Part shown: positions 34,137-60,732 of the stretch, piece by piece
Position numbering within the stretch: the stretch's first letter is position 1
Layout of the letters: every line of letters begins with the position of its first letter
Assembly (NCBI GenBank): GCA_039621445.1
Contig: CP154954.1
Coordinates: 27,206,123-27,270,122, forward strand
Direction of reading: 5' to 3'
Length of the DNA: 64,000 bases
Source: Euglena gracilis
Lineage: Eukaryota
Notes under the pieces: model-generated
What the model saw: the letters and a program-made list of their open reading frames with translations, nothing else
Databases searched by the model: none
What the model was told of the DNA's origin: nothing
Translations under genes and position numbers: made by a program

Positions 34137-35919
34137 TGTTGAGCTCCTGTGTCTTTGTTTGAGAAAAAGCCCTGCAGGAAGCAGTGGGGAATGCTTGTTC
34201 AGGAGGCAAGGCTGGTACCATGCCCCCCCCCTTGCTGTTCCCGTCCTGTGGCCCCCTTTTGGGTCCATGAGTAAGGGGGGGACCCCCCCCCTTGCTGTTC
34301 CCATGGGCCATGAACTAGCCAACCTGGACCCAAAAGGCCACCTAAAATGCCAAAATGAAGCTCTTTTGGTTCACGTGCTTGAAAATTGCACCTCCACAAC
34401 ATCCATTTTGGCATTGGGTTGGACTTTGATGGGATTGAGAGCACCTGAAACCAATCCAAAAATTCCCTTTTCTCTTGTGTCCCAAGAATCCTTTACAAAA
34501 AGTGCCCTGACACAGTACTGTTCCCCTCCCCCCAATGGGAACAGTGAAGGGGGGAACAGTGAGGGGGGGCAGGGCAGAACGGGAACGCCTGGTGGGGGGG
34601 ATCGACCCCCCCACCCGGGAGGTGGGGGGGTTCGACCCCCCCCCCACCCACCACAGCATTTTCAACGATTTCAGGAAAACGGGGGTTTTGGCCAGAAAAA
34701 TTTCGATTTTTTTTTGAAAAATGAACCCAAAACACATGATTTTTTGACGGAAAACCAAACTTTTTCTTCTCAAAAAAATCTCAAAAATTTCAGGGTTGAA
34801 AATTGGCAGTTTTTTTAGTAGGCGGGTGAAAAAAAACGAAGGTCAAAAAGTGGACCAAATTTTGGCACAGTCAAATTTTACTGACATTTTCTCTCGTTGA
34901 AATTTTGACTTCCAATGGCATTTTTTTGGGTTCCGTGTGGAAAATCGCGGATGACCAAATTGCGGATCGGGCCGACCTGGTCCTGGTCAGCCCGACCACT
35001 GCGTATAGCTTACCAACCAGTTTGGGTCGGGCCAACCCGCAATATTCCGCACTCCCCCCCCCCCCCCCCGGTGGGATCCTGAGAGAATAAGTCCAGTTCA
35101 CACCGTGATGGAATGATTGCAGAAATAACTGTATCCAAAGGCAAAAGGCACCCCTGAGGCACTGACATGGCAGAACTGACAAAAGGGCAGAGCATGGGAA
35201 AAAACACGGAGATTTGGTTTTTGTTTAACCCCGCGCCCCCGCACCCCCCCCCCCCCCCGCCCCCAATAACAAAATCCCTTTGCTGCCGGACCGTTTGGTG
35301 AGCATGCGCAATCAGACACCCATTGTCGAAGGGCGCCTTCGGCGCCCTTGGTCATCTAGCAGTGGCGGAGGGGGCTAACCCCCCCCCCCCGCACCCCCCC
35401 CGCCCCCAATGACAAAATACCTTCGCTGCCGGACCGTTTCGTAAGCATGCGCAATCCCCCTTTGATATCAGTGCTCGGCGGACAGGGTGCAACTGGGCAA
35501 GCTGTAGATTTGGCGGCCAGTGGGGCGGTTTATCGGATTTATTCTGTGTGGTAGTTTTAAAGCCCCCGTTTGCCCCCCCCCCGCCACAGCTGACGTGACA
35601 CCCCTATTTGTCACCCCCCCCCTAATAGTCGCCCCCCCCCTTGCGGGGCGACAATTAGAGGGTCACCCATGGACATGTGGGGTAAATTGAGCAACCCCCC
35701 TAATTGTCACCCCCCCCAATTGTCGCCAGGGGGTCAAAACGCTCCCGGGGGGTGCCATATAGGGAGGGGGGGGTCACGTTTCTTCGGATTTTTGCAAACA
35801 TGGAAAATTGCCACATTCTGCATAGACAGTTGGATCGTGCATCCCTTGGTTGTCTCGGGTCTCGTGGTTTGCATTGGCTAATCAGGTTGTCCATCGTGGT
35901 TTTGCCTATTTGCATACTT

Positions 35920-36385
35920 TCCATGGGGTTTCCCCATCTGTACTTTAGCCTTCCCCTCAGAACACCCGAAATCCAGTAGGTTGCGCCACTGGTCGGTGGA
36001 TTCGGTTCGCCCCACCACCGTATATTTGGTTTTGCCTATTTTATCTTATCTCTCTCGTCTCCTAGCCTGGGCCCAGTACTCCCCACCATTCCCACATCCT
36101 TCCCTCTCCAGATCGAACGCCACCGTCCTTCCCCCTGTGTTTCTGCACGTTCCTGCCCTGTTTCTGCCCTCTCGGCCTGCCCCTCACGACACTTAATGCT
36201 ACCCACTCTTCGCCCTTCCGGGTTTCCTGGGAACCGGATGACACCCTCTGCCTTATCCTTATCCATGGGGTCTCCCCATCTGTGCATAGCCTTCCCCGTA
36301 CACTTCAAATCGCCACTGGTCGGTGGATTCGGTTCGCAGAGCTGGAATTCGCCGAAGAAAACGGATTCGGTTCGCCCAACCACAT
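35920..36385 (+). repeat. Stacked short 3'-end remnants of CRE-like elements
   Basis: GCCACTGGTCGGTGGATTCGGTTCGC at 35985 and 36312, each preceded by CTGT(A/G)C(A/T)TAGCCTT as at 37366 and 60643; partial copy at 36362. Confidence 0.7.
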
Positions 36386-36414
36386 TCGCGGCGATCGCGA
36401 ACGGAAGGACTTCC

Positions 36415-37449
36415 TAATTGGGCCTCATTCGACAGATGGCTCCTTGCCGGAATGTCCCCGTTGCCACCAACAAATGGATGTTGGAGGAAACCACCTTGTC
36501 TGCTGCCCCAAAAACAACACTTTGCGGCGACATGGTGCCCTCCAGACGTTCGTTTTGGACCTGGCGAGAAGGGCCGGTTTCATGGCTCGACGAGAAGAGG
36601 TGGCTGACAACCGGACAAGACCCGGAGATGTCTTCCTCACGAGGTTCGACGCGGACGGACCTGCAGCAGTGGATGTCACGGTCCGCCACCCGTTGCAACC
36701 AGCAAACCTGGTCTCCTCAAAGGACGCCTTAGCACGGTGGCACGAACTACAAGAGGGAGACAAAGAACGCAAGTATGCAGCCACCTGCGAACGGCTGGGA
36801 TGGACGTTCATCCCGTTTGTGGTTGATTGCTTCGGAGGGATGGGGGAGCGAGCGGCAGGATTCATATCCAAGTGCCTCCGCACTGTGTTGGCGCAGACCG
36901 ATGTTCCTCAACGACGATCGTCAGAGGCCACGGTATGGTAAGCGCTGAGTCTAACGTTGGCCAGGGAATTGGCTCGCCAGCTGGCTTGGGGGGCAGTGGC
37001 GGAGCCATCAGGCGACGTTGATCTCACTACCCACACCCCATATGCCACGGAGTAAAAAAGGGGGGGGTCAGGGCGAACACCATGTAAACACCTGCGGCCG
37101 CTGAGGCCAAGCCAGGCAGCCTACACCGGCCACCAAGGGCCGGTATTATTGGCTTTGTCCCGATGACACAACATGGTAAGCACACCTGAGAGAAAGCCGA
37201 AAGGCCAGACGAACCCGAAACCTCCATTGAGCACACCGGGGAACAGCCTGCCCCCAAAAAGGCCACCCCACCCCGCCTGCTCCCTGCCACCTCACCCCTC
37301 GGGCCCTGGCCCCCACATGGCCGATTCTGGGTTCACCTGACCACCTTACCCTGAGACTGTCGCTTCTGTACATAGCCTTACCCCCTGAACACGTCAAATC
37401 CAGTAGGCAGTGCCACTGGTCGGTGGACTTGGTTCGCCCCACCACCGTA
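36415..37449 (+). mobile_element. 5'-truncated CRE-like element (RLE domain + 3' UTR)
   Basis: CPRC..HLVCC, RRH, RPGD..AVDVT. Premature TAA at 36939 followed by the homologous ALSLTLARELARQLAWG. Conserved 3' motif at 37412. Confidence 0.88.
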
Positions 37450-37469
37450 GTCCCTAGGTAGATTCCTCA

Positions 37470-37494
37470 TTTCTGAGTGTCTATTTTTTTTTCG
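37470..37494 (+). other. Euglenid spliced-leader exon (retrocopied, not an SL RNA gene)
   Basis: TTTCTGAGTGTCTATTTTTTTTTCG matches the Euglena SL (ACTTTCTGAGTGTCTATTTTTTTTCG). It is followed by CATAATACATG, not a GT donor. Confidence 0.9.
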
Positions 37495-37569
37495 CATAAT
37501 ACATGGCGGACAATTGAAAGCCCCTGGTGGGGACAAACCAAGCCAAGAGTTCAACTATCATCGATCACA

Positions 37570-38530
37570 AGTCCTGCTGGTGCAGGCAGAAGAAGTCCTG
37601 CTGGTGCAGGCAGAAGTTGAAGTCCTGCTGGTGCAGGCAGAAGTCAAGTACAAGTACAATACCAGAAGTCAAAGGTACAAGCTCAAGACAAGACATTCAA
37701 GAACCCAAGTCCTTGGGCTTCTCAGCCCTTATTGGTCTTGCTGCTGCAGAACTTCACCATGCTGCTGTTGGCTGTATTGGGCCTGAAAAGGCCCCCTCAA
37801 CACCGCCACTGGCCTGAAAAGGCCCTGGGCCTGAAAAGGCCCCCACTGCTACAGGGCCTGAAAAGGCCCCTTCAGCCACTGGGCCTGAAAAGGCCCCCCC
37901 AGTTTTTGGGCCTGCAAAGGCCCCCCCATCTGGGCCTGCAAAGGCCCCCCCCCTTTGGGCCTGCAAAGGCCCCCCATCTGCCAACCATTAAGTGGAACTT
38001 TCAGCTCCAGTGTCTTCTTTTCGGTGTTCTGCATTGCATCCCAAACTTCTGATCAATTGAAGTGGCAAACCCCCAGTTTTCACAGCACATGTTACACCAA
38101 AAGCTCTGACACATTTTGCAGCAGTTTTGACTTGACATTGAAAAACATTTTGCCACCCCAACCCCTCAGTAACACTTTTTGCAGCAGTTTTGACTTGACA
38201 TTGAAAAACGTTTTGCCACCCCAACCCCTCAGTGACACTGTTTTGCCCCAGTGTCCTGCAAAGTCACTGGGCCTGCAAAGGCCCCCCTGTGACACCATTT
38301 CGGTCTATTGCACCATTTTGCCCTAGTGGCCTGCAAAGGCCCTGGGCCTGCAAAGGCCCCCCTCCAACACCATTTTGCCCCAGTGGCCTGCAAAGGCCCT
38401 GGGCCTGCAAAGGCCCCCCTGTGACACCTTTTTGTCCTGTTGCAGCATTTTGTCCCAGTGGCCTGCAAAGGCCATGGGCCTGTGAAGGCCCCCCCCTGAC
38501 ACCATTTTTGCTCTCAGCCTGAAAAGCCCC
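37570..38530 (+). repeat. Tandem repeats in the 5' region of CRE-like copy 1
   Basis: AAGTCCTGCTGGTGCAGGCAG x3, more than 12 GGCCTG(A/C)AAAGGCCC units, and a 60-bp duplication (38110-38232). Confidence 0.85.
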
Positions 38531-38575
38531 CGACAAACTGGAAAACCATGTTCCTCCACATTTTGGACTGCAACA

Positions 38576-41500
38576 GTGGCCCCCCGGCTAGACAGCACAT
38601 CCACTTTTTGGTCTGCAACAATGGCCCCCCAGCCAGCCAGTTCTGCCGGATTCTACAGGCCTGCAACCTTCCCACCTCAGCAAAATAAACTGGACAACCC
38701 CCATGTTCCGTTCCCGCTGACCGGAAGAAACCACCCAACGTCGGCCAAACAAATAAAAGTGCTGGTGCCTGACGTTTCTGCGAAAGACAGCACACAGCCT
38801 ACCCTAGCAGCATCGGGAGGGGCAGGCCGCGGTCGGTCTTTACTGACCTGCGGGGACATTGAGAGTAACCCCGGGCCTCCTACAAACCCACCATCTGTTC
38901 CGGGTGAGGATATTGACATGGCGCCAGCATCACAAACCTCAATCCCTCCTACTGCACCGCCGCCCGCAGAGCACCCGTCGGTGTCGGGTGAGGACGTTGA
39001 CATGGCGCCAGCATCACAAATTTCCATCCCCCCATCCGCACCACCACCCGCAGTGCCACCATTGGAAAGGGGATCTTGGTTCCCAAATCTGCCGGGTCCA
39101 TTGTTCTTTGGCCAACAAGGCCTCCCCTCAATGTGCTCCACGGTCATCATGGAGAACCCAATTGGCACACAAGGACCAGGACCCTTCCCCCCGTCAGATG
39201 TTGGGGCCATTTGGATGCAAGCAAATCAGGCGACACCCTTCCTGAACTTCTCCAACCTCCCTTTGGGAGCCAGCTCTTCAACCTCAGTGACAGCAACCGC
39301 AGCAGCATCGTCACTAGCCCTCGCGGGACCCCCACCAACCTCAGTGGCAACAACCGCAGCAGCATCGTCACCAGCCCCAGCCAGACCCCCACCAACCCCC
39401 ATTGGCCAAAATCACATTGCCGGGGTTACGCCATTCTCTGCTCCATGCCCACCATCCCTTCATCCCACTTTTGAGGAAATTTCTTTTGATGATCGGGGCA
39501 CCCTTGTATACCTGCCGCGTGGAGCCCTCCTGAATGTCAATCAAACCTACCTGCAATTGTTGAGGCATTTCAACAGGGAACCTGGCTGGGAAACCCTGCA
39601 CGCCTTGTGGGCCTTCCCCAAAGCGGTGCTCTGTCCTTTGCAGCGTGGCGGGCGACAGAACTGGGCGATGGTGGGGAGAAAAATTGCAGAACGAGCTCGC
39701 CTGTATCTCACCCGTCCTGTGTTTGATTCTTGGTTGGACTCCAGTCTCCCACAAAAGCCACAAGGCAGACAGACAAGGCAAAAAACAGCACTCGCTGCCA
39801 AGGCCACTGAAGAACGGTTCCTTTCCCGCATTGAAAGCCTTGTTGGCCACGGGGCTATTTCAAAAGCCTGCCGAGAGCTCACCTCTGAGGGGGTTCAGAA
39901 CAGCAATGACCCAAAAGTGATTCAAAGGCTGCGTGACCTTCACCCACCAGAGCCTCCACCGCGCATCCCGGTGTCCGACCCTTCCCAAACGATCACCTTT
40001 CCTTCGGACCCAGAAAGCACAAAAGAACGATTGCAAAATTTGCGCAAAGCTATATTCGGGTTCCCAAAGGATCCGCACCGGGTCCTTCTGGCCTGAGACC
40101 TGACCACCTCAAGGCCATGGTTGGAGACTACCCAGGGGCTTGTGGAGATGACCTCCTCGAAGGGCTTGATACCTTCATCTGTCGGGCAATTACAAACGGT
40201 TTTCACCCCGGCATGGCCCCAATTCTTTCCTCAGCCAGGTTGACACCTCTGCGAAAACAGAACAAACAAACATCAATGGAAGAGGATGCTTTTGGAAACC
40301 TTGTGGAGAACACGGTGTGTGATGAAGACACTCGCCCAATCGCAGAAGGTGAAACCCTTCGCCGATTGGTTGGCAAATGCCTCATGCGTCATCCCACAGT
40401 GGTAAACGCTTTGAAAGAACTGAGTCCTCCACAATGTGGCGTTGGTGTGCCGAATGCTTGTCCACTGATCGCAATGGGAATCCAACAAATGGTGGACACT
40501 TTGCACTCAGACAGAGACATTCGCTGGGGGCTGCTTCAAGTGGATTTCAGGAATGCCTTCAACTCTTTGTCACGGGAAAAAATCCTGCAATCCATCCGTA
40601 GACGATGCCCAGAAGTGTGCCCTTGGCTGGATTCGTGCTACGCCCAACACAGCAAGCTGTATTGTGGAAACCATTGTCTGCCTTCCCAGAGGGGGGCTCA
40701 GCAAGGCGACCCATGTGGACCAGCAGCTTTCGCATGGGGAGTGCAAGACCTTTGTGAGGGCCTCTCACCGTTGGTCGAATGGCAGGGATGGTACTTGGAT
40801 GACGCCCATCTGCTGGGATCGCCAGCCCAACTGCACAATGCCCTTGCCTTCCTGATTCGCGAGGCAGCCACACTTGGATTGGCTGTAAACCCTGCAAAAT
40901 GTCGATTGTGGGGACCAGCGTTCACATCAACAGAAGGCTTCCCTTGCATTCCCCCTGGCACGCCAAACGACAGCCCCTTACATCAAATACCACTGACCGC
41001 CTTTGTTGCTGGTTCTGGTTTGAAAGTTTTGGGGGTCCCTGTCCACCACCCCCAAGATGACCGCTTCTGTAACGAAGTTTGGAGTAAGCGCATTGCAGAC
41101 ATCCGACGTTCTTGCACAGTACTTCAGCACCTACCTCAATCGCATGTGCAATTCACCTTGCTTCGTTTTTGTTTATCTGCTTGCAAAGTGAATGACCTCT
41201 TGCGCGCCTGCAAAATCACCTCTGCAACAGCGGCATGCAAGACATTGTCGGGAATTATTCGGGAAACATTCAGTGGCATGGTCGGCTCCCCTTGCACTCC
41301 AGAAGAATGGTTGCAAGTTTCCCTGGCCATCAGATGTGGTGGACTGGGGATCTCGGATCCACTATTTCAACGTGTGCCAGCCAGATTGTCTCAAGTGGTG
41401 GACTTCTGTCGAAGAGCTCCCTCTGTCTTGGGCCTGCCCGCTGCCTTGGACATCCTTCCCAAAGACACTGACGATTGTTTAGGGACAGCCTCAATGAACT

Positions 41501-42410
41501 TGGTCAAATACCCCCACTGCCACAATGGGCCACTGACAAAAATTTGATTCCCCAGGCACAGTCTCCACACAATTCACAACGTTGGTGGAATCAGCAGAGC
41601 ATGCTTGCCCGCCAGAAAACAATTCGGGACACATTGAATGGACCTGATGCTGTACGCTTTGCAAGCCAATGCCAACCACACGCTATGGCATGGGCCGCTT
41701 TGACACCATCTCAAGGACTCCGCACCCTGTTGCCCACGGCTGAATTCCGCTGCACACTTCGTTGGTCCCTTGGAATGACTCTCACACCAATGGAATCCGA
41801 TCCCAACCTCTGTCCCAAATGCTTTGGACAATCAGATTTTCTCGGACACCACCTCGTTTGCTGCAAATCAAACTTCATCACCCGGCGGCACGGGGCGGTA
41901 CAAGATTTTCTGACAACCACAACACAGAAGGCAGGATTTACAGCCTGTAAAGAACAACGAGCTGATGACCGTTCCCGGCCTGGGGATATCTTCATTCCTC
42001 GCTTGGACAGTGATGGACCCGTTGCAGTGGATGTGACAATCCGCCACACCCTTGCGCAAAGTCATCCGCTGCGAAGTGCAGAGAGCCTTTCACAATGGCA
42101 AACACGTCAAGAGGCTGAAAAGCATGCCAAATATGATGCAACATGCCAACGACTGGGCTGGCGGTTGACGCCATTCGTCATGGATTGTTATGGGGGCAAG
42201 GGACAAGAAGCGCGCTCCTTAATGGCCACCCTCCTCAAGGCCCTTCTGGGGCAGCGGGAAGGGTGGCAGCGGCGGACCGCAGAAGCAGACATTTGGCAAG
42301 GCCTGTCCTTCACACTTATCAGAGAAATCAGCAGACAGCTCGTGTGGAGCTTGTATTCTTCCAGAGATGAGATCACCCTGTCTTCCGCCCACTCACCCTA
42401 TTCTGTCTGA
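38576..42410 (+). pseudogene. CRE-like polyprotein (2A, RT, zinc-binding motif, restriction-like endonuclease), two frameshifts
   Basis: RPIAEGETLRRL, VDFRNAFNS, QQGDPCGP, WYLDD, GGLG, CPKC..HLVCC, RRH, RPGD..AVDVT. Comparison with the 60733 copy shows a 1-nt deletion near 40071; a second shift lies near 41490. Confidence 0.9.
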
Positions 42411-42850
42411 AGGCCTTTGAGCACAAACTCTCAACCAAATCTCACCTGCCAAGTTTTTAACCCCTAGTTACCCCCTGAGCTGAGCAGAGCCACACGCCGA
42501 GCCAAAGACACATATCACATAGACACACAGAGAAGCAAAACACAACAAAAGCCAAAACCCGACACAAACACGCCATCCCGTGGCAAAAGCGGTACAAACG
42601 CCCCCCCCCCGCCCAAAATATATATTGAAGGTGACCTTTGCTCATCTTCCGCTAACCACTGACCTCCACAACAAGTATCACTCAGTGGCTCCTTTGTACA
42701 TTACACCCACAGTATAATCTACCCGCGACCTGTGGCGGCACAGGGAGTCACAAGGGGGTTCCTCTTGTGGCGAGGGCCAAAAGAGACGTTTCCCTGGGCC
42801 CGGGGCACGGTTTGGGTGAAGCTGTGCTACCCACCGTGAACTTATAAAAG

Positions 42851-42875
42851 TCTGAGTGTCTATTTTTTTTGTTCG
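42851..42875 (+). other. Euglenid spliced-leader exon, second copy
   Basis: TCTGAGTGTCTATTTTTTTTGTTCG followed by CATATCATG, the same context as 37470. Confidence 0.85.
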
Positions 42876-44426
42876 CATATCATGTCGGACAACTGAAAGC
42901 CCCTGGTGGGGTTCAAGCTTTGAACTACCTGAAGTTCCAACCTACAATTCAAGTCATTGAAGTATTGAATTTATTGAAGTCTACAAGTCCGAACGAAGTA
43001 CAGTACAGAGAAGAGAACTACTGGCGTGGTTCATCACCGTGCGGTTGTTGCAGCAGTACAACATCATCTGCTACACTAGTTGGCTGTTCCACTATACTTT
43101 GCTGTACCGCCTGTGCTGTAACGTAGCGTTCACTGTTCCAACCCGCACTGTGGCCCCAGGGACCCTGGGGCCTTACAAACATTTCACAGAGTCGGCCACA
43201 GGGCCCCAGACTTTTGCCATGATGCTCCCAAAATTTGCCCCAGGGCTAAACACATTTCAAGCCAAAACTGGCACAAAAAAGTTTTTCACAGATGTGGCCC
43301 CAGGGCCCAAGGCTTCAGCCATGATGCTGTCAAATTTTGCCACAGGGCTCAACACATTTCCAGCCAAATCTGGCACAGAAAAGTTTTTTACAAATGTGAC
43401 CACAGCCCACCTCTTCAGCCAAAAACGCATGGCAACGGCTAGCCTCGCCACCTCACTGGGCAGAGTCGGAGGAAAAACAGACACGCTGCCGTTCTGCAAA
43501 AAAACACTCCAAGAGAAGAGCCCGACATGTCGCAGTGCCCACTCAGCCCCACAGAAAGCGCAGGGGTCAAATGAGACCGAGTCTGAAAACCCATGGCGAA
43601 AACGAGACGTCTGCTCCAGGCGCCAGGGCATCTCGGAAGCCAGTGAACAGCTCCGACCAGAGGGAGGCGGCAATCTCCGGCTGTGGCCATCAAGGTCAAA
43701 AATCCGCAAAACACGATGCGGCCGAACGGCCAGTGCCTACCTCGTCCAAGGATTTGGGCCCGACGGAGAGCGACCGCGCCGCTGGCGTGAGGCCCCGTGC
43801 CGCTGCCCCCCGGACCTACCGCTCCGGCCAAGGTGTGGCATTCGAGGTGAACACGGAGACCAAGCCCTGCAGCCCGCCAACCAGCCGGGCCGCCCCCACC
43901 TAAATTTGGCCGGAGGAGGGCGCGGCCAAGGCCCCTTTAAAACATCCCCAAGCTCCAAAAGTGCCCCCTGCCGATGGACGGCATCCTCATCAGCGGCCGA
44001 CCTTCAGGCTGTGGAAGCTCCAGTTTCCGCGCACGCCCGAAGGGGCAGAGGCGAGGACTTGCTGTCCTCAGGGGACGTGGAAGCAAATCCTGGACCGGAA
44101 ACCCCCGGTGGCCCTGATGCCATGCAGTTCGATTTTCAGGACGATCCGACGCGCACCGTGGGCTTCCTGATGGCCACGACCTTCCCCCCCATCCAACCGG
44201 GCCCAATGGTCCCAACCTCCTCACAGGACGCACGGGATTTACAGGATCTCCTCCAACGGCTGATCAGTAGGCCGCCCCCCGAGGTGGCATTGGATCAACC
44301 CAGATCAAGAGGACCGAGCGCCCTTGCTGGTTTGGAAGACCTGAAGCTCAAAGTGTTGCGAAGCGTCTTGCTCAGCAGGTTGCACTGTGGGACAGATAGG
44401 TTTACAGGGGTTGCCCGGAGAAGGTT

Positions 44427-45115
44427 TGTACGGGATAACCCCCTTTGCTGCTCCGCTTGTTCCAGGTCCGTGGGGTCTCCCTGTCCCCGCGTAGGATCGA
44501 TTACCCTGCCCAGTTGAATTTCAATTCCCCGCGCGGCCTTTGTTAAAAATTGTTTCATTTTCTGGGTTAAAAAGACCTTTTTCCTTTTTGGGGTTGGTGT
44601 TGGGTGGGTCCTTGGGGGGTCACAAATCGGGTGTAAAACACCTGTAAGTCTTGCTCAAAGCAGCGAAATGCGTTCAAATTGGTGGTCGTGGTCAGTGAAG
44701 GTCTTCGGTGCTGGCGAACTGGCGCTTCTTAGGCACACCAGCAGCAACAACTCCTGCTTCAGGCTTCACTTCAGATCACAGGACCAATGCTTGAACAGAT
44801 AATCAACTTCCACTCCAATGAAATCTTGACAAACTTGAATTGGCTTGAAACTTGAACCAAATAGGCCAATGGCAAATAGATAATCAGCTTGAGCAAGGAC
44901 AGTAGTGACAGAGCCCTGTGGGAGTCAGTGGTCAAAATGTGGCCAGGGGTTAAAATTCAGTTAGGAGGGGGTTATCCTAATTGTTTCATCATTGAAACAG
45001 TAGGCCCCTGGTTGGGTCAAGTCCCCTGGTTAGTTCTGTGGCGCCCGGGTTAGCTTTTAAGGTCAGCGCCTGAGGTTAACTAACTCACCAGGGCACTCAG
45101 CACCCCTGACTCACA
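44427..45115 (-). repeat. 3' LTR
   Basis: Direct repeat of 56641-57329, preceded on minus by the polypurine tract. Confidence 0.96.
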
Positions 45116-45126
45116 CTCCCCTTCCC
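45116..45126 (-). other. Polypurine tract
   Basis: GGGAAGGGGAG immediately before the 3' LTR on minus. Confidence 0.85.
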
Positions 45127-46844
45127 AAGGAGTTGTCTACAACTCTTTTCGACTCACTTAGGAAGGGGTGCGGAGTGCGTTTGTTGTAAGGGGGCTGGGC
45201 TGTTCCTGTTTTTGGTCTCAGGTTTGTTCCTCCTCGGGGGGGGGGGCTGGCCTGGTTCTTTTTTTTTTTTTTTGGTGGCTGTCCCCCCCCCAGGTTCCTT
45301 GTCGTGGGGGGGGGGGGCAGGCGCCGGGGCTGGCCTGGCCCTCTTTTTTTCTTTTTTTTTGCCAAGGGGGGGGGGCAGCTCCCGTTCGGGGGTTCCGCCC
45401 CCGCCTGCCAAGCGGTCAGTTGCCGGTCAGGGGCAAACTTTTACAAAGTTCAAGCGAAGGCTGAGTCAGGGTCTTTCGGTTAAAATCAAGCTGGGACAGG
45501 GCCAGTTTTTCTTTTTTTTTTTTCAGGGTCAGGTGGCAGGTTCCTCCACGTTTGGTCCACGGGGGGGGTCTGCCTTTTTCTTGTGGGGGGGGCAGTTGGC
45601 TGGCCCCGTTTTTTTTGTTTTTTTTTCTCAGCCTCGGTGGCGCACTCCCCCCAGGTCCAGGTCCTGAACGGGGGGGGGGCAGGCAAACGCTGCCTACCTC
45701 AGCCAGAAGGCCGTTTTCAATTCTTCTTTATACTCCCGGGGTGTATCCTGGCACCCCGGATCTGTCCGGCGTGGGGGGGGGCAGCAGGCTCCTTAATGCC
45801 CCTTTTCCGCTCCACCCCCCTCTCTTTCGCCAAACGTCTGTGTAGTTGAAAAATGCACAAATTAAGCGGAGGGCTGGGTTTCAGTTGAGCCCTCTACGCT
45901 CTGGGTCAGACCAGGTGTGGCCAACCCAGGTTCTGGTTTCTTTTTCTTTCTTTGCAGGTCCGGGGCTGCCCCCCCCCTCTAGGCCCTTCGTAGCCGGGGG
46001 GGGGGCAGGCGTCAAGCGCTGCCCACGGTCTGTTTTGGGGGGGGGGCAGTTGGCTGGGCCCCCCATCTTTTCCTTTCTTGTCTTTTTTTTTCTTTTCTTT
46101 TTGCTTTTTTTTTAAAAAAAAATCTCTGCCCCAACCTTAGGCTGCCCGTGGGGGGGAACCCAGGCCCTCGCTGAGGGAGGGGGGGGGCACCCTAGGTTCA
46201 GTGTGGGGGGAGCACCCCAGGTTCAGCGTGGGGGGGGGGGGCTCCAGGTTCAGTGTGGGACAGCTTCCCTTCCCACTGCGGTTGAAGAAACGGTCTGAGA
46301 GCTCTGGACAGGTAAAGGGGGGGGGGCTGCGAGGGGGCAGCCCGAACCAATATGGGGGTGGGGGGGGAAGGGAGCCTCCGGGGGGGAGCTAGCCCCAGAG
46401 GTCGCGGAGGTACCAGGGGGTGGGGGGGCGTGGGGGCGGGTCGTTGTCGGAGGAGGAGGAGGAGGTCGGCGACGCCGGGGGGGACGGGCTCCGCTCCGGA
46501 GTCCCGAGGTAGAGGGGGGGGGGGGGGGTGTCGTTGTTGGGGTGGGCTGGGGTGGTATTGGGGTGGGTGTAGGCTGGGTAGGGGTGGGTGTGGTCTTTCT
46601 CCAGCAGGTGGCGGGGGGGAGCTCGGCCTCGAGGGCCTTGCGTAGGGGTGGGGGTAGAATTGTGGGGATGATGAAGTCGGGGGTTGGGGGTGGTTGGTAT
46701 GGGGGAGGGGGTGGGCGTCGAAGGGGTTGAGGTTGAAAGTAGGGGTGGTGATGTTGGGGTTGTTGGTGTAGGTGTTGGCGTTGTGGACGTCGATGTCGGG
46801 GCATCTGTGAGGAAATGTGGGGATGATGAAGACAAGGAACCTTG

Positions 46845-49800
46845 TCACTTCATCAATTCCAACAATTCCTTGACGTCCAAATCCACCCCGTTCTCCACAC
46901 AATAGGCAACCACGTCCTTGTTGATTCTGAAGAAGAAATTCCCCAGTGGTTCCCATTGGTCCTCTTCTGGCCCAAATCCTTTCCACCGCCCCAAAATTCC
47001 GTCTTCCCGTTTTCATGTCGGTGGTTGAGCACCCTTTCCACCTCCCACTCGTCGGGTCCAACCTCCAGTTCTTGTGCTTTCCCACACCAAAAATACAAAG
47101 GCACGGGGGTGGTCGAGTAAAGGTCTTCCACGTGTGGTTTCAGTTGGGAACGGTGGGCTGGTTGTCGCTTCCCCGGCTGAAGCTCCACCACATAGGAGTG
47201 GTCTCCCACTCTTTCCAAAACCACCGCTGGCCCTTTCCACCTGGGTTCCAACTTGTCGGTTCCAGGCTGTCGTTCAGGTTGGTACCAAACCTTGGAACCA
47301 ATCTGAAGGGCTGGGGGTTCACGTCGTTTCTGGTTCACAGCCTCTTTCCGAGCCTCCAGTTTTTCATTGAGCGTTTGGGCCACCCACCTGTCTTGTTCCT
47401 TCATTCGCTTGAGGAATTCGGTTGCACCTTCAGCCTCCCGCTGTGGTTTGTGCGGAATCCCACACAACGGTCGGTGCCGCCCAAAAACAATTTCATAAGG
47501 GGACAATCCAGCCTCACCCGGCACGTCGTGAATGGCTCTCAGGGCCCGTGGGAGGAGTTCCACCTACGGGAGACTGCCGGCTACAGCCAGTTTTGCAAGT
47601 TTCCGCATTACCTGCTGCCCGGCTACCTCTGCCCTTCCGTTCGCCTGATGGTGGTAAGCCTGTCCATAGGCAACCCTTACACCGTGTGCTGCGCACAGAG
47701 TTTTCCACCAGGCTGCTATGAACTGTGGACCCCTGTCGGAACTCACCACCGAGGGGATTCCGAACAGATCCCACTGTCGAAACATTTCCTTGGCCACCTT
47801 TTCTGCTGTGAGACCCTTGTTAAGATGGGGGGTAGCAACCATCCACCCACTCAATCGGTCCACACAAAGTGCCAAAGTGTCGTACCGTTTCCCTTCAAAA
47901 GTGGTTTCCGGTAGTGCAAAAAGTTCGACCGCCACGCTGTCCATCAGGTGGGGCGGGACCGGTGTTGGTTGTATCGGACACTTGAAAGGTTGATGGTTCG
48001 GCTCAGTGACCTGACACGTTTCACACATCCCCATCATTTTGCTGGTCAGTTTTTTTGCGTGTTGATGGTCAGCGAAAAGAAACCACCGACCCATCTGATC
48101 CCATAGCCGTTCAGCCCCTGGGTGTCCCGCCGCTTCGTGGTGTTCCCTGATGACCCTCCCCGTGACATCCCTTGGTACACACAAGAGTCCGTGTTTGAAG
48201 AGCCTTCCGTTTTCAAATCGGAAGCCCTCAGGCCATTCTTTGAACCCCGAATCCTCCAACCCCTTGAGCACAGGGCCCCACTTGGGGCACCCGCTGTACC
48301 CGCTCCTCCAGTCCTCGTCCATCACCGACTGCGACCCTGTCGGTGGAAGCTCCGGGGCGTGCACTCCCCTTGATGGAGGTCCCACAGGCAGGCTCGTCGA
48401 AGATGAGGGACGCTGCGCGTCCTCGAGTCCGTCCTCCCTTGGACTTGCTGTTTTTGGAGGGTCCACAGGGTCCTCTTCCAAGGTTCTTCGCCTAGGGGGG
48501 TCTTCCTCTGTGGCTGTCCTCTTGGCCATTTCTTTTTCTGGGGTTCCCTTTTCTTGTGTGCCTTCGGTGTCCCTGTCCTTGGGTTTTGAAGTTTTTGAAA
48601 TTTTTTCTGGGGGGGTCTCCTTCCCTGGTGTGACTTTACTCGTTGTGGCCGAATCCTCACCAGTCTTGGCCCCTCCCCTTGTTGTGACGGCCACAACGAG
48701 GGGTGGGTCTCCCAAATTTTTCTGTGCCCGCAGCAATTCCTTCATCGAAACCACTGAGCAGCCCCTTTCCTCCTTCCTTTCCTGTTCGATTATTTCTTGC
48801 ATGAGGCGGTCATCCTCCTCACTGCCGTGCACACTGACGTCGGCAAACGCCTGTGAGGCGGGATAGGCCCACCTGCTCAAGGCGTCAGCCACCACGTTGT
48901 CCTTCCCAGGTACGTAGGCCACCGTGATATCAAATTTTGAAAGGAGTTCGTGCCATCTGGCCCTACGTCCCGACAACCCTGTGGCTGTGTCCAGGTTTTC
49001 TGTGGCCCAGGACTCGATTGCCTTGTGATCGGTCAGGACCAGCACCGGTTGCATACCGATCCATGAGGCCCATTTCTGAAGGGCCAGGATCACCGCGTAT
49101 GTCTCCTTGTCCCGTGGTGTCCAAGTCCTGACCTGTCCCGGTGCCAATTTCCGTGAACAAAATGCCACTGGGGCCGTTTTCTTGGTCTGTGCCGTTGTGG
49201 TGTCCGGTTTCCCCAATCCATCCTCCACAAACTGCTCCAAGGCAGCCCCCACAGCCCTGCCACTGGCATCCACTCGGAGGATGAATGGCTTGTCGGGGTT
49301 GACCGTTTGCAGTTTGAGGCTGCCCAACAGTTTGTCCTTGATGGCCTGGAACGCCTTGCGTTCCTTCTCCCCGAAAAACACAGGCATCTGGCTCCCCTTT
49401 TTTCCCAGTCCCTTTTTCACCTTGAGTTTTTCCATCAGGTCCGCTGCCAGCTCCGCGTATCCTGGGATGTAGGAGGAGTAGTAGTTGGTGAATCCCAGGA
49501 AGGCGCGGAGGGCTGTGATGGTTTTCGGTTCTTCCCACTTTTCCAGGGCCATCAGTTTTCCTGGGGCCGGTCTCCGTTGTCCTCCCCCCAGGATGTGTCC
49601 GCAGAATTCCACTTCATGGACAAAAAACTTACATTTTTTGATGTCGGCTACGAGCAGCTGTTTCTTGAGTGCCTCCATGACTCTGCGGATGTCCTTGTCG
49701 TGCTGGAGGATTGTTGCCTCTTCCGTTCCCTGCCAAACTGTGCCTACGATGACGTCATCTACGTAGTGGTTGGCAATGTCTGCGACCTCCTCCAGGCTGT

Positions 49801-52549
49801 ATTCAATGACCCTCTGGAAAATTGGGACTCCGTTTTTCATCCCCATCACCACTACTTTCCACTGCTTCGTTCCTCTTGGTGTACTACAGCAGGTGTAGGG
49901 TCGGGATTCCTTTCTCATGGGTACCTGATGGAAAGCATCCTTTAGGTCCAACACACTGTACATTGCCCGTTGACCCTGTTGGACCAAGATGTCTTCGATC
50001 CGGGGGAGGGGGTGTGCGTCTGTCACTGTGGCCTCGTTCAGGGCCCTGAAATCCACCACCCCCCTCCACTTTCCCCCTTTCTTGGCCACCACGAACGTGG
50101 GGCTGGACCAGTCACTTCTCCCATCCTCCACCTTTTCATCCCTGACCCACTCGTCGACCATGTCCAGGAGTGCCTGCCGGCGTTCTCCGGTCATGTGGAT
50201 GGGTCTTTGTTTCTTTGCCACCGTCCCAGGTTTGAGTTCTATTTTCCCGAAACCCAGTGGACCACGTTCAGGGGGGTTTGGGTAGATCTTGTCCCTCAAC
50301 ACCACTCCCTCGTAGTCTTTGCGCAGCTTTGCGACCAAATCTGTCACCCTGTCTCCCTCCACAGCCTGCCCTTCAGGCACGGCTATCACTCCCTGGACCT
50401 CCTGTGGGGCTTTGCGTTTTCTGGTTTCCAGATGCTGGGCCAGATTTTCCAAAACTGTTTCGTCTTCAAACAAAAATTCTTCCGTTTCACCTGCTTCTGC
50501 AGGCACCTGCAGGTTCATGGCCCGCACCTTGCTGATTTTCTTCAAAATTTTTCTGTCACCCTGTTCCCGTTCTCTTACCCCTTTCCAACTTGTCAGCAGG
50601 AGCAATGGTTCCCCTATCAGGGCCAGTGAATGTAGGTGTGGAAAAACCCCTAAGTGGTGTTGCTCCATCCAGGGATACCCCAAAATGGCATCCACCTGGA
50701 TTGCCGCGTCGTGGAAGGTCCCCGTGGTTGTCCATTCCCTTGTGTTGTCTTGGTTGAAAATCTGGGCCGTGAATTTCAGTGTTAGTGTCGTTTCATGCAA
50801 CCCTCCCCCCATCCGTGTGCCGTCGGCAGTGACGAGGGCCAAGGGGTGGTTTGACACCGTGAAGGCTCCTGGGGGTAGAAGGTCTTTTCTGATCAGGTTG
50901 GTTTGGGCCCCTGTGTCCACGAGGGCCTTGAGGTCCACCGTTTCACCGTTCGGGCAGACCGCACGAATGCCAATCAAAAGTTGTTTGGACTTCCCCCGTT
51001 TCACCACCTGTCCCAACAGCCGTTCCGATGCTGGCCCAAGCAACCGTTTTGGCAGGTGAACGTTTTCATGGTGTCTCCGTGGGATTTTTGGCTGTGCCGC
51101 AGGCTCCTGTGTGTTTTGTTCATCTCTCCAACCAGCCAAATCTTGGATCAGTTTTTCTGGGATTCGATACTTTTTGTTTCTGGAAATACTCGTCGTGTTG
51201 GAGATTTTCACCCGGTGACCCTTCTGCCCTGGGATCAGGTTGGGACATGTTCTCCCGTCACACAACTTTCCGTGCACTTGCAGAATATCTGGGCTGCCCC
51301 AGATTCGTGTTGGCTTTTTGTACCCCCAGTCGGAGTATTGACAATAGTCCACATCCACGAAGGGATATGGTTTCATGTACTCCCTGTGTCTGAGGTACCC
51401 ATGTCTGGGATTTTCCAGCCACCATTTCTGCGGTCGCAGGTATTTCACGATCTCCAGGGCCTTTTTGGCCAATGCATCCCCCTTCTCCAGTTGCCTTGGT
51501 CTGGTTGTGAGTGCCAGGCTGAATTCCGTGCAGGGAACCCCACAGACCACCGTGTGGAATTCCCCAGGTTTCAGAACTTTTTTGTAGTCCCACGTCAAAA
51601 CATCCACCTGAAAATCTGCCTGCCACTTGGGGTCCAGGTCCACTGTCACCACCTGAAACCCCATTTTTTTGTATGCTTGGCCCACCGACTTGGTACCACA
51701 GAAAAGGTCCAGCATTTTCCGTTTCGGTTCTGCCGAACGGTCCAAAACGTTTTTTTCCGGCAGGTCTGTTTTCCCCAGTGGCTGGTGTTCATCACCCCCC
51801 TCCTCTGTCTCCAAAGGTGGAACATGTTGCACCGTCCCGAAGTTGACCTTGGACGTTGGGTGTGGGGGGGTCATGTGCTGGTGGAAGCCCGTCAGGTAAT
51901 CACAGCGTCCCGTGTGCCCACACACCAGCAGCACCTCCACTGGCCACTGTGTTTCCCTGCAACCCTTGTCGATCCTGCCAAAAAATTTGGTTTTTGCGGG
52001 AAAAGTCATGGACATGAGGGTCAGTTTTCTGGCCTGCGGGTACCAAACTCGGTGTTTCCACTGAGGCACCACCAAAACTGCGTGGGCCTGGTCTGTCTGA
52101 ATTTTTTTGATCACCTCTGGGATTTTGTCGAACGGGGGGTTGATCCACAGGAGGCTGCCCTGCCAATTTTTTTGGAAGGCATCTGTGCCGTGTGGGCTGC
52201 CTGGTCCCCACCAACGCGGGAACCGCTTGTCCTGTTCTGTGGCGAAGGCATCCACCTGTGGTTGCAAACTGAAATGTGAGATGATTTTTTTCACAAAACT
52301 GTCCCGTACGTAGTACTGGTTGGTGATCCAACGGGAGGCTGCCCGCCCAAACCTGCAGCTAGCCTCCTCCCGTGGCACCTGAGTCTTTGTGTTTTGTCTT
52401 TGTCTGTTTTGCGCTTTCTGGTCTGAACCCCTGGATCCCTTACCTCCCTGTTTCTGCTGCTGCGGTAATGGCTCCTTTCTGTCCCTCTGTTCGGCTTGTT
52501 TACTCAGAGAGTCGCCCCTCTCGTCCCCTCCCTCCTTACCGCAGCTGCT
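46845..52549 (-). CDS. pol: Gypsy Pol: N6A-MTase, C5-MTase, protease, RT, RNase H, integrase, chromodomain (one internal TAG, one frameshift)
   Basis: NPPF; DLFCG/GVPC/ENP; LVDTGA; LDLKDAFHQ and YVDD; RVDASG; HHEAAGH..CETC, SDRGPQF, NGRAE; WEVERVLNHR..RWKGFGPEEDQWEP. TAG at 47564-47566 is probably mutated TGG. Frameshift near 46990. Confidence 0.93.
51130..51715 (-). other. C5-cytosine DNA methyltransferase domain within Pol
   Basis: Motif I LDLFCGTKS, motif II/III VDLD..DV, catalytic motif IV GVPCTEFS, motif VI WLENP, motif VIII region DYCQY..KKPTRIW, C-terminal YRIPEKL. Confidence 0.88.
51930..52320 (-). other. Dam-like DNA N6-adenine methyltransferase domain within Pol
   Basis: VDAFA...DAFQKNW...LWINPPF (52130-52141)...AVLVVPQW...WY, the motif order of the phage-Dam-like MT domain of DIRS elements. 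Confidence 0.85.
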
Positions 52550-54268
52550 TCACTTCTGCCCCTGGGCAGCAACCTGCTGTCCAGTCTGTGGTGCTGCCAT
52601 TTTCTGTGCCCACCGTAGGGGCTGTGGACACTCTCGTTTGAAATGTCCCGGCTGTTCGCAGTTGTAACACCGTCCGTCATCTGGAGGTGGCACGTATCTG
52701 GGCTGTCCGGCTGTCCCGGAGTTCTGTGTCGACTGCCAGGACGGTTGTCCCTTTCCTGAATTTCCCTTCCCGCTCCCCTTCCCAGACCCTTTTCCCTTGC
52801 CTTGGTCAGGATACGAACCCTGTCCCTTGCCTTTCCCTTTCCCCTTGCTGTAATCCACAGTGGTCCAGCCTGCCCAATTTTGGCCCTGATTTTGACTCTG
52901 TCCCTGATTGTAGGGGGCTGGGGGCTGGGGTTGTGGGACACCCGAAGGCTGCCTTTCCTTTTCCGGAGTTGGTGGTCTGGGTTTTGGGGAATTGGAACGG
53001 GACCGGGCAGGTGGGGGCGTTTTGCTTCTGGGTCGAGAAGAATTGTTTTCTTTCACCTCCCGCACATACCCCCTTTTGTCACTGGATCTTGATCGATGTT
53101 CCCGTGGCTGGTTCTGCCACCCCCCGAAATTCTTTCCGAAAGTGTCAGATTGTTCCTGACATCTCAGTTCTGTTTCCACCTTTGCAAACATCTCCTCCAG
53201 GGACAGCTTTGTTTGTACCACTGTGAATCTGGGTTGGTGTCCTGAGGCCAGGGCTGTGCCGTTCTTCATCATCAGCAGCTGGGACGCCCTGCTGCCGTTC
53301 AGGCTGATGATGAAATCAGTTCCGTCGGCTGTCACGAGGAACCTTTCGTCAGCCCCAAGTGTGGCTGCCACCAGTCTTGTTACGTCTTCCCTGGTTGCGT
53401 CTGGGACCCCAGGTACGCTTGTCAGCCCCTTCAATTTCAGAGTGGGTCTGTCTTGGTTCCTCCTGTCTTGTTCACGAATGCAGTTTCTGCGCATCATTTC
53501 AGGCATCCGTTCAGCGACCAATGCATACGCATCGTCTGCGGAGGGGTGTTCCAACCGACTGTAGAGCAGTTTGAAGCGTGCTTCAAACTCCCTCCATGCC
53601 CCCAGAGTCAGTTTTCCATCGTACCTGGGTTTCAGGTTTTTCAGCTCCTCCTTTATTGCCAGCTGGGTGTCCCCTTCGTACTTTTGGCAGAGCCAATTCC
53701 AAAATTCCTGATATCTGATTTTTTCTCCCCGTTCTTGTCGTCGCTGGAGCTCCAGCCGGCCCGTCTCGTCAAGGCTTCCCTCCAAAATTGTCAGTTTCAT
53801 GTCATCTGTGAGGGGTCCCTGTCCGGCTGACAATCGGTTCAGGTAAATTGGAAATTTCACAGAAAAATCTGCAAAATTTCCTTGGAGGAGCGGTCTGACC
53901 AGGTCTTTTGTCATGGCTGCACCCACTGGTCCCATCAGCAGCCCAATGGAGGGGGCAGCCTGTGCTGCCACTGGGGCGACAACCGTTTCTGCCCCCACAT
54001 GAAAAATGGGTGTGTATGTGCTGCCGAATTGGGGACCTGCTGTGTTTTGTGGCCCTGGGTTTTCTTCTGTCACCCATGTGAACAGATCCCGCGTTCGCGG
54101 CTGTGAGCTCTGGCTGGGACCTGTGCTTTCCCGTTGTTGACTCTGTTGTTGCATCATGTTTTTGATTTCCAACAGTTCCCTCTCCAGTCGCTGCTGGTGT
54201 TCCAGCATTGGGTCTGTCGGTTTCGGTCGAGGTTGAAAAGGTTGGGCGTCGGCTGAAAGTTCAAACAC
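52550..54268 (-). CDS. gag: Gypsy Gag (capsid-like region + CCHC zinc knuckle)
   Basis: CYNCEQPGHFKREC knuckle near the C-terminus, GK-rich linker, position directly upstream of pol. Confidence 0.88.
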   Translation of the reverse strand: MFELSADAQPFQPRPKPTDPMLEHQQRLERELLEIKNMMQQQSQQRESTGPSQSSQPRTRDLFTWVTEENPGPQNTAGPQFGSTYTPIFHVGAETVVAPVAAQAAPSIGLLMGPVGAAMTKDLVRPLLQGNFADFSVKFPIYLNRLSAGQGPLTDDMKLTILEGSLDETGRLELQRRQERGEKIRYQEFWNWLCQKYEGDTQLAIKEELKNLKPRYDGKLTLGAWREFEARFKLLYSRLEHPSADDAYALVAERMPEMMRRNCIREQDRRNQDRPTLKLKGLTSVPGVPDATREDVTRLVAATLGADERFLVTADGTDFIISLNGSRASQLLMMKNGTALASGHQPRFTVVQTKLSLEEMFAKVETELRCQEQSDTFGKNFGGWQNQPREHRSRSSDKRGYVREVKENNSSRPRSKTPPPARSRSNSPKPRPPTPEKERQPSGVPQPQPPAPYNQGQSQNQGQNWAGWTTVDYSKGKGKGKGQGSYPDQGKGKGSGKGSGKGNSGKGQPSWQSTQNSGTAGQPRYVPPPDDGRCYNCEQPGHFKRECPQPLRWAQKMAAPQTGQQVAAQGQK

Positions 54269-54372
54269 AGCTTGGGGTTTGGGGGGTTGGGTTTTTGACC
54301 CGGGGGGGGTCCTGTCGGATTGAAAGTTTTTTAAATTCTTCTTGTACCGTTTGCACCATTAGGGTTTTTAGG

Positions 54373-56772: not shown

Positions 56773-57329
56773 TTTCTGGGTTAAAAAGACCTTTTTCCTT
56801 TTTGGGGTTGGTGTTGGGTGGGTCCTTGGGGGGTCACAAATCGGGTGTAAAACACCTGTAAGTCTTGCTCAAAGCAGCGAAATGCGTTCAAATTGGTGGT
56901 CGTGGTCAGTGAAGGTCTTCGGTGCTGGCGAACTGGCGCTTCTTAGGCACACCAGCAGCAACAACTCCTGCTTCAGACCTCACTTCAGATCACAGGACCA
57001 ATGCTTGAACAGATAATCAACTTCCACTCCAATGAAATCTTGACAAACTTGAATTGGCTTGAAACTTGAACCAAATAGGCCAATGGCAAATAGATAATCA
57101 GCTTGAGCAAGGACAGTAGTGACAGAGCCCTGTGGGAGTCAGTGGTCAAAATGTGGCCAGGGGTTAAAATTCAGTTAGGAGGGGGTTATCCTAATTGTTT
57201 CATCATTGAAACAGTAGGCCCCTGGTTGGGTCAAGTCCCCTGGTTAGTTCTGTGGCGCCCGGGTTAGCTTTTAAGGTCAGCGCCTGAGGTTAACTAACTC
57301 ACCAGGGCACTCAGCACCCCTGACTCACA
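56641..57329 (-). repeat. 5' LTR
   Basis: Reads TGTGAGTC...CCCGTACA on minus. By eye it differs from 44427-45115 at only two positions (GGCTTC vs GACCTC). Confidence 0.96.
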
Positions 57330-58525: not shown

Positions 58526-58529
58526 TGGC

Positions 58530-60175: not shown

Positions 60176-60732
60176 AACGAACATCACGCCCAGCCTCTAA
60201 CACCCAGGGATTACTCGACGCTGCGTGCCGCGAAGTTTTTCCACGCGCCCATAGGGCCAGTCATTACAACAAATTGAGGTGCGCTGGAGGAAACAATTCG
60301 TTGGGCAGATGCTCACACACCGTTTCTTGAAGCGGACTTCGACACACAACTACGGCAGGCCGCCTCTACAAAGCAGCCAAAGCAAGCAGGACTCCACACC
60401 CGCCACACTACCAACGCAGCACGCCAGATCCGCAACGACGCCCCGAGGGCCCAGAGCGTGAAAGACAGCGGAAAAAGGAATCACAGCCCCACACGTCATC
60501 AACACACAGACCTTAAACGGCACCGAGCCCTGCCACCTCCCTATTGCCTGCCCAACCACTCTGTCTCTGACCTCGCGCATTTTACTATTCCCTCGCTCCC
60601 CTTTACTCGCCCCCTTTACCTTCCCTCCCTTCCCAATTGCCTCTGTACATAGCCTTACTCCCCTGAACTCTTCAAACCCCATAGGCTGTGCCACTGGTCG
60701 GTGGATTCGTACGCCGCTGTTCTCGTCATCAA

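Follow-up and report, generated by a model that had tools for sequence, protein, structure and literature searches.

Host Spliced Leader Sequence at the Heads of R2/CRE-Type Retrotransposons in a Euglena gracilis Array

A full-length copy of a retrotransposon that lacks long terminal repeats (a non-LTR retrotransposon) must bring its own start signal, and the known solutions are internal promoters, co-transcription with the target gene, and ribozymes. The 64,000 nucleotides of Euglena gracilis DNA analyzed here (assembly GCA_039621445.1, contig CP154954.1, positions 27,206,123 to 27,270,122 of the forward strand; hereafter the window, to which all positions below refer) hold a head-to-tail array of R2/CRE-type non-LTR retrotransposons, two of which, el1 and el2, begin with the spliced leader (SL) of the host, and the question raised by this locus is how the SL came to be there. 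The SL sits at the 5' ends of the elements, goes with the 5' completeness of a copy and has no SL-gene context. The best explanation for its presence is trans-splicing of the transposition RNA, which we consider the probable source of the SL heading the 5'-complete copies.

SL copies and the shared leader

The window was scanned with the 19-mer core of the euglenid SL, allowing up to 3 mismatches. Two matches were obtained, at 37473 and 42852, both on the plus strand and with 0 mismatches, against a chance expectation of 0.00, and there was no third match in the 64 kb at this threshold. An earlier reading of the locus, made from its letters without database searches (the sequence-only reading), had proposed that the two elements start with the host SL joined directly to element sequence, and both parts of this proposal were borne out. 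The E. gracilis SL is given as 26 nt in the available part of PMC6242988, and a primer for it is given in PMC5654406; this published sequence matches from letter 3 in el1 (as a T9 form) and from letter 5 in el2 (Table 1), and each SL is followed at once by a leader that the two elements share.

The leader, 36-38 nt in length, lies directly 3' of each SL. A search for it in the window gave two matches where 0 were expected, both with an SL in front. SL and leader together span 63 nt with 89% identity and are the sole nucleotide similarity between the 5' regions of el1 and el2, as beyond them the 5' untranslated regions (UTRs) are unrelated. Since in addition their proteins are 35-52% identical (tblastn), we agree with the sequence-only reading that el1 and the second element represent different subfamilies. 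Each leader also contains a conserved upstream open reading frame (uORF) of four codons (MADN-stop or MSDN-stop) just 5' of a CCCC/GGGG hairpin. This 4-bp hairpin was the only fold of the leader, which folded no better than shuffled sequences (z = +1.06 and -1.11).

To place the SL copies among genuine SL RNA genes, we drew on environmental sequences. A metagenome scan for the SL core returned 23 loci, comprising nine true SL RNA genes (Table 1), two loci that were useful in other respects (L006 and L012, see below) and chance matches to T-runs, while a scan for SL plus leader returned 0 loci. In prokaryote genome_contigs the SL core was found at eight loci, of which seven were chance matches and one was an SL-bearing contaminant contig (L028). 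The SL is followed by a GTAT intron in all nine of the environmental euglenid SL RNA gene loci, most of which also have the Sm-like site AATTTTTGG; one of them (L015) holds two SL RNA gene copies 782 bp apart. The T9 variant of the SL is present in two of the nine (L005 and L020), so the T9 of el1 need not be an inherited mutation.

In the window, the letters after the SL are CATA, which belong to the element leader rather than to an SL RNA intron. We considered the leader as a degenerate SL intron and rejected this, as 612 and 676 of 1000 shuffles reached the observed score. Searching the window against Rfam identified no 5S, SL RNA, small nuclear RNA (snRNA) or ribozyme family. Judged by sequence, then, we can exclude that this locus lies in the context of an SL RNA gene, because CATA stands where GTAT would be expected, the leader is not intron-like, and Rfam finds no 5S, SL RNA or snRNA gene; the sequence-only reading had likewise reported neither an SL intron nor SL RNA genes around the elements.

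Complete SLs with no SL intron after them, and with 400-800 nt of unrelated DNA before them, were also seen in L006 (minus strand, SL at 812-830) and in the contaminant contig L028 (SL at 796-814). In L006 the SL is followed 19 nt further on by an ATG, from which an ORF of at least 264 aa with no Pfam family extends. These two loci may be candidate SL-tagged retro-copies in other euglenids, or chimeric assemblies.

The source of the SL

The elements of the array are all on the plus strand with no spacers between them, and each SL is directly 3' of the 3' end of another element, an arrangement that the sequence-only reading had not noted. An SL is present at both junctions that precede 5'-complete copies (el0/el1 and el1/el2) and absent from all three that precede 5'-truncated copies (frag1/frag2, frag2/el0, and second element/el4). 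That the SL tracks 5' completeness across these five junctions argues that it is part of the copied RNA and not of a target gene or target duplication. The extent of reverse transcription should have no bearing on a target duplication, but should decide whether an SL at the template RNA's 5' end is copied.

Additional joints were available from contigs of public sequencing runs (Logan contigs), of which run X1 is guessed to be DNA and runs X15 and X17 are guessed to be RNA; contig depth cannot rank the parts of a gene, and the putative RNA runs, being contigs, cannot show 5' ends or precursors. X1 has 17,726 contigs on 7.7 kb of this stretch, i.e., the elements are highly repeated, from which it follows that the family has been active. 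Its joint 37385->37470 places an element 3' end before the SL, as does 37448->42851, which passes from an el0-like 3' end through 29 letters ending in ACTT into the SL of the second element, here from letter 1. A third joint, 37448->42871, has a degenerate SL and then the same GTTCG-leader as el2. One further X1 contig joins 42870->42856 with a single C between them, and so stacks a complete canonical SL on an SL copy that starts at letter 11. The start of this relic is right after the AG within the SL (CTGAG/TG). If X1 were RNA, the contig would show splicing but not reintegration.

The environmental contig L012 has coding sequence for a protein distantly related to the C-terminus of el1 (279 residues aligned at 31.5% identity, E 4e-34), and an SL at the contig end, ~450 nt past the coding match, abuts the 3' end of this relative, so that the placement of an element 3' end beside an SL is not peculiar to our locus. 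The idea that "ACTT plus filler" before the SL represents a split SL was dropped, as those letters in L012 are the conserved 3' motif of the element.

The regular position of SLs behind element 3' ends (two of two in the window, the three X1 joints 37385->37470, 37448->42851 and 37448->42871, and L012) is what would be expected if the endonuclease cut within the SL, in the manner of CRE, SLACS, CZAR and NeSL, with the SLs being target halves, an SL-derived target-site duplication of ~20 bp, or sequence brought along by co-transcription from an SL RNA gene promoter. The protein is of a type that is usually site-specific, and el1 lies between identical 20-nt SL stretches (37472-37491 and 42851-42870), which the sequence-only reading had overlooked in stating that no target duplication was visible. 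Reading these stretches as a duplication is nevertheless disfavored by the five junctions: all three 5'-truncated copies lack an SL on their 5' side, and el0 has an SL on its 3' side only, so it is not flanked by a duplication. In addition, the SL starts at letter 3 in el1, at letter 5 in el2 and at letter 1 in the X1 contig, variation that is expected of cDNA 5' ends and not of a fixed nick site; no part of an SL RNA gene (intron, Sm site, or 5S) is nearby; and the stacked relic is left unexplained. We consider SL targeting unlikely as the source of the SL. The array does suggest a preference for insertion next to the 3' end of an older copy or next to an encoded SL, and such a preference may hold in addition to trans-splicing.

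Trans-splicing, the existence of master copies and read-through transcription are each plausible, and together they would work as follows. An element transcript would probably arise by read-through within arrays, or else at a small number of master copies whose splice acceptor lies immediately 5' of the leader, and the host SL would be joined to it as to a host mRNA. Full-length target-primed reverse transcription would copy the SL into DNA, and cDNA synthesis that stopped early would yield copies lacking it. SL-headed daughters would have no acceptor of their own, but could be re-spliced at the AG in the encoded SL (CTGAG/TG), so that 16 nt of the old SL would remain as a relic behind a new one. 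Since copies with a single SL dominate, a few master copies carrying an acceptor at the border of the leader are likely to exist, and the stacked contig suggests a second route of re-expression via the SL-internal AG. The sequence-only reading had asked how a daughter without its acceptor is expressed again, and the AG inside the SL itself provides part of the answer. As to its broader proposal, that the SL was reverse-transcribed from a trans-spliced RNA, the presence of the SL in the copied RNA stands (two of two versus three of three junctions), and the trans-splicing step is plausible, with one X1 contig in its support. A single change in the SL 3' end (T-run plus CG) would also produce a pyrimidine tract followed by AG exactly at the SL/leader border, and the extra TTCG of the second subfamily may be what a border event of this sort left behind, as a short relic.

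Several observations weigh against trans-splicing as the source of the SL. The stacked relic is a single contig with a depth of 320.9 versus 37,346 nearby (~1%), from a run that is only guessed to be DNA, and the shorter side of joint 37448->42851 is 28 letters, below the 31-letter criterion. Master copies with an AG acceptor, which the sequence-only reading had named, like stacked relics, as things to look for, are not among the leaders of the window, both of which are preceded by an SL; one stacked contig was found. Taken alone, the 20-nt SL stretches around el1 would be compatible with a target duplication as well. The putative RNA runs do not decide the matter: the T8 form at 37484 accounts for 1675.2 of 1684.3 depth in X15 but for 0 of 32.6 in X17, ratios that conflict (in X1 it makes up 16885.2 of 48494.8). 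Lastly, the letters at the SL/leader border look family-specific, and the GTTCG of el2 recurs in the degenerate copy at joint 37448->42871, a recurrence that fits inheritance through DNA as well as it fits a short older relic.

This last point leads to another explanation, in which the SL and ~38-nt leader are a built-in 5' module of an element transcribed from its own first letter, a module that would act as an internal promoter or initiator, was acquired once, by one capture or an old trans-splicing event, and has since been passed on via DNA, with no need for trans-splicing in every cycle. The module would be comparable to Pr77 of the L1Tc/ingi elements, or to the promoter elements that some SL RNA genes have within the gene. 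That SL plus leader is the only 5' nucleotide similarity left between subfamilies so diverged in protein gives it the look of a selected cis element, the border letters (T9-CG versus T8-GTTCG) behave as family traits, and most copies have a single SL with no relics, as expected in the absence of re-splicing. We know of no promoter activity of a euglenid SL, however, and the stacked SL-on-relic contig in X1 (with the run guessed to be DNA) is taken to show trans-splicing acting on the elements. Further, the leader does not resemble an SL intron and SL RNA genes of the T9 type exist; the varied SL starts fit either model. Pr77 does offer a precedent, as a short 5' signature common to otherwise different euglenozoan elements, in this case of trypanosomatids; it differs in being, according to the accessible text of PMC1874656, an internal promoter for Pol II whose transcripts are not spliced, and not an SL. 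On balance we find an inherited module rather doubtful.

The SL could also have been added at the end of cDNA synthesis, by the reverse transcriptase (RT) jumping from the 5' end of the element RNA onto a free SL exon or SL RNA. Template jumping is a known property of R2-type RTs, mammals have comparable chimeras in their U6-L1 pseudogenes, and a jump would join SL to element 5' end with no need of an acceptor. A jump onto SL RNA, however, should bring intron sequence along, and none is seen at either copy; two subfamilies share the position in the leader at which the junction lies; and the start of the relic exactly after AG points to splicing. A template switch of this kind seems very improbable.

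Returning to trans-splicing, we tentatively offer a broader scenario, which is possible but less than probable, in which the elements have no internal promoter and live as genes within polycistronic arrays of their own making. The nuclease would place new copies behind an older 3' end or before an encoded SL, read-through transcription would cross the array, and SL trans-splicing would cut out and cap the individual units, such that the SL would serve both as a tag and as a regenerating splice site. With a T-run plus CG at the end of the SL and an AG inside it, a daughter headed by an SL would need only one step to become an acceptor-bearing master again, and that step could be either use of the internal AG or a single change making the T-run end in AG.

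Other features of the putative RNA runs concern the same region. In X15 the bin 37414-37670 has a depth of 4314.7 and the two bins upstream of it 139.2 and 0.82; this step was not counted as a 5' end at the SL, because contig depth cannot rank parts and the run is only guessed to be RNA. The first ~550 nt of el1 (37470-38022) have a contig depth in X15 far above that of the ORF, a difference that cannot be ranked for the same reason, and one X15 contig terminates behind 38022 in a stretch of 22 A that the genome lacks at this place. A short 5' transcript with a poly(A) tail, or else a non-autonomous derivative, may account for this signal. One X15 contig shows the SL in inverted orientation before 37470, which was taken to be an assembly or cDNA artefact. 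In X18, a leaf-litter metatranscriptome, 70 contigs are 90-99% like the element, 10 of them at 99% or more, so this litter seems to contain a close relative of the host or RNA from one.

The elements and their surroundings

The features of the array are collected in Table 1. The sequence-only reading had described both SL-headed copies as full-length, which requires correction: el1 is complete and has two frameshifts, while the second element is split at 44425 by a 12.9-kb LTR element and is then rearranged. Other genomic copies have an extra A after 40070 (four public-run contigs, depth 16926.9 of 96283.2). The 5' region of el1 is ~1.1 kb long and rich in tandem repeats.

Table 1. Features of the retrotransposon array in the window, and SL RNA gene loci used for comparison.
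Feature	Position	Strand	Remarks
frag1	35900..36022	+	3'-UTR-only CRE-like remnant; conserved 3' motif GCCACTGGTCGGTGGA at 35985
frag2	36023..36383	+	5'-truncated 3'-UTR remnant directly behind frag1; 3' motif at 36312; no SL-like match at junction
el0	36384..37469 (start approximate)	+	5'-truncated; C-terminal endonuclease part and 3' UTR; 3' motif at 37412
el1, whole	37470-42850	+	5'-complete copy; two frameshifts in coding region
SL copy 1, head of el1	37470..37494	+	Published SL from letter 3 to final CG, T9 in place of T8
el1 shared leader	37495..37532	+	uORF 37503-37517; CCCC/GGGG hairpin 37520-37532
el1 5' UTR	37533..38575	+	Tandem repeats, periods 24-132 (TRF)
el1 coding region	38576..42410	+	Three frame pieces (orfA, orfB, orfC): 38576-40096, 40117-41547, 41475-42410
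el1 2A-like D-x-E-x-NPGP	38855-38878	+	Near N-terminus of long ORF
el1 RT	40411-40911	+	Pfam RVT_1, E 3.1e-11, orfB
el1 CCHC and PD-(D/E)xK-type endonuclease	~41811-42131	+	Motif reading
el1 3' UTR	42411..42850	+	End adjoins SL of next element
SL copy 2, head of el2 (E2)	42851..42875	+	Published SL from letter 5 through T8 (42851-42870), then GTTCG
el2 shared leader	42876..42911	+	uORF 42882-42896; hairpin 42899-42911
el2 5' UTR and N-terminal ORF	42912..44424	+	102-bp tandem repeat; 2A-like site 44074-44097; cut by LTR element
Ty3-like LTR retrotransposon in el2	44425..57329	-	12.9 kb; 691-bp LTRs 44425-45115 and 56639-57329
gag ORF with zinc knuckle, in Ty3-like element	52550-54268		
799-aa ORF in Ty3-like element	54373-56772		
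Rest of second element (probable), rearranged	57330..60708	mixed	tblastn 48-52% identity to el1; 3' motif at 60690
el4	60709..64000 (start approximate; runs to window end)	+	5'-truncated el1-family copy, 93-95% nucleotide identity; no SL at junction
SL RNA gene loci (metagenome contigs)	L002, L003, L005, L007, L010, L011, L015, L020, L023		

By their domains, motif order and profile the elements are classed as R2/CRE-type non-LTR retrotransposons, i.e., those with a restriction-like endonuclease, because they combine an RT with C-terminal CCHC and nuclease motifs, match an R2 profile and have no identifiable APE-type endonuclease. For the last of these, Pfam gave only RVT_1 in the three ORF pieces and nothing in the N-terminal ORF at E values up to 1. 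Residues C113, C116, H126, C129/130, R138-H139, E160, R168-P-G-D171 and D186 are invariant in three copies. The motif order of the Euglena nuclease (C-x2-C ... H-x3-C ... RH ... E ... RP(G)D ... D) matches the pattern of the SLACS/CRE restriction-like endonuclease given in the accessible part of PMC12857005, with two deviations, RHG for RHD/N and RPGD for R/KPD. We built an RT profile from 22 of 93 database homologues, mostly the closest ones of ~920-1260 residues plus three more distant named/NCBI records, leaving out the el1 query and the longer top homologues P0001 and P0002. This profile aligned with solved R2 proteins (9nl3, 9dou, 8gh6) from the RT through the C-terminal nuclease (positions 227-946, E 4.5e-33); el1 as a single sequence gave no match in PDB. 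Relatives of the el1 RT in the protein atlas were "hypothetical protein" clusters only, and a scan of viral_contigs with the RT found no relative. The 2A-like site that occurs in both subfamilies would release a short N-terminal peptide during translation.

Of the flanking copies, el0 represents a third subfamily (36417-37046 versus el1 orfC residues 103-310: 45% identity, E 4e-61, tblastn); its 3' end adjoins the el1 SL and its own 5' junction has none. Within frag1, 35974-36022 is a 90% match to 37401-37449. Downstream, el4 is interrupted at 61274-62646 by ~1.37 kb of unrelated sequence rich in G/C runs.

The sequence beyond the LTR element probably belongs to el2, to judge from its similarities. 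An inverted RT piece (57330-58397, minus strand) corresponds to orfB residues 1-361, and plus-strand pieces (58537-60172) to orfA 299-462, orfB 390-441 and orfC 35-310, with a 3' UTR to ~60708. As orfA 299-462 runs straight into orfB 390-441, the plus-strand pieces lack about the part that is held by the inverted piece, which indicates that a single copy was inverted or rearranged internally, rather than that separate insertions took place.

The Ty3-like LTR element that splits el2 has LTRs that are 99.7% identical and a 4-bp AAGG duplication on both sides; it is young and has no part in the SL finding. Its polyprotein of 1604 aa matches RT, RNase H and integrase, and also Dam (E 3e-4) and DNMT (cytosine methylase, E 3e-3), both of these under the Pfam cut-offs. 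In this it resembles the Dam+DNMT "EpiLTR" elements of Euglena gracilis described in the available portion of a bioRxiv preprint (10.64898/2026.05.21.726589). Two homologues of the el1 RT, P0001 (1849 aa) and P0016 (2111 aa), also carry a precomputed Dam methylase domain (PF05869). The capture of adenine methylases may thus extend to this non-LTR lineage; alternatively, the gene calls of P0001 and P0016 may be nested or chimeric.

Known systems and implications

CRE1/CRE2, SLACS, CZAR and NeSL-1 sit inside SL RNA genes, splitting the SL exon. The Euglena elements are like them in having an RT, a C-terminal CCHC motif and a restriction-like endonuclease, and here too SL sequence adjoins the element, in a euglenozoan host. 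They are unlike them in that a near-whole SL exon stands at the start of the element and leads straight into element sequence, with no intron, gene repeat or 5S gene, and in place of the CRE hallmark of fixed insertion in SL RNA genes, with gene halves or a long duplication, the flanks are the 3' ends of other elements. The target of R2 is 28S rDNA, and its 5' end arises through co-transcription and the action of a self-cleaving ribozyme; the likeness to R2 lies in the alignment of our homologue profile from RT through nuclease, and the difference in the lack of any ribozyme family found by Rfam in the window. The telomeric CRE-clade elements MoTeR/FoTeR share the nuclease motif family, variable tandem repeats in their 5' regions and site preference, but, from what PMC12857005 offers in its accessible part, they target telomere repeats and carry no SL.

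A different parallel is found in dinoflagellates, in whose retrogenes an encoded SL that is re-spliced at its AG persists as a truncated relic behind the newly added SL (PMC3229502 and PMC7245778, as far as their available text goes). Like these SL-relic retrogenes, the Euglena elements have an encoded SL at the 5' end of the retro-copy, in two of two 5'-complete copies as well as in copies in X1. A stacked relic cut at the SL-internal AG was seen in a single contig of X1 (as noted, guessed to be DNA) and nowhere in the window. The dinoflagellate retrogenes are host mRNAs copied in trans, whereas here the SL is carried by an autonomous retrotransposon, and in a euglenid. A Symbiodinium preprint (10.1101/783902), in its accessible portion, reports RT-encoding genes and DinoSL-relict genes to have no functional overlap. 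In our literature search, which had subscription journals and preprint supplements outside its scope, we found no SL-headed autonomous retrotransposon described in Euglena or elsewhere. Nor did it yield a Euglena transposon description of this kind, though the supplements of 10.64898/2026.05.21.726589 may list Euglena elements.

If trans-splicing is indeed the source of the SL, then the definition and capping of the 5' end by SL trans-splicing would be a further solution to the problem of the start signal, one available only to lineages that splice SLs. The "mRNA recycling" of dinoflagellates would be extended to euglenids and to autonomous elements, and the CRE/NeSL elements that target SL genes would be linked to a different use of the SL. 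The encoded SL is a built-in tag of full-length retrotransposition, and the number of cycles could be read from counts of relics. Such genomic copies of the SL will also confuse SL-based calling of transcript ends and counts of SL RNA genes in euglenids.

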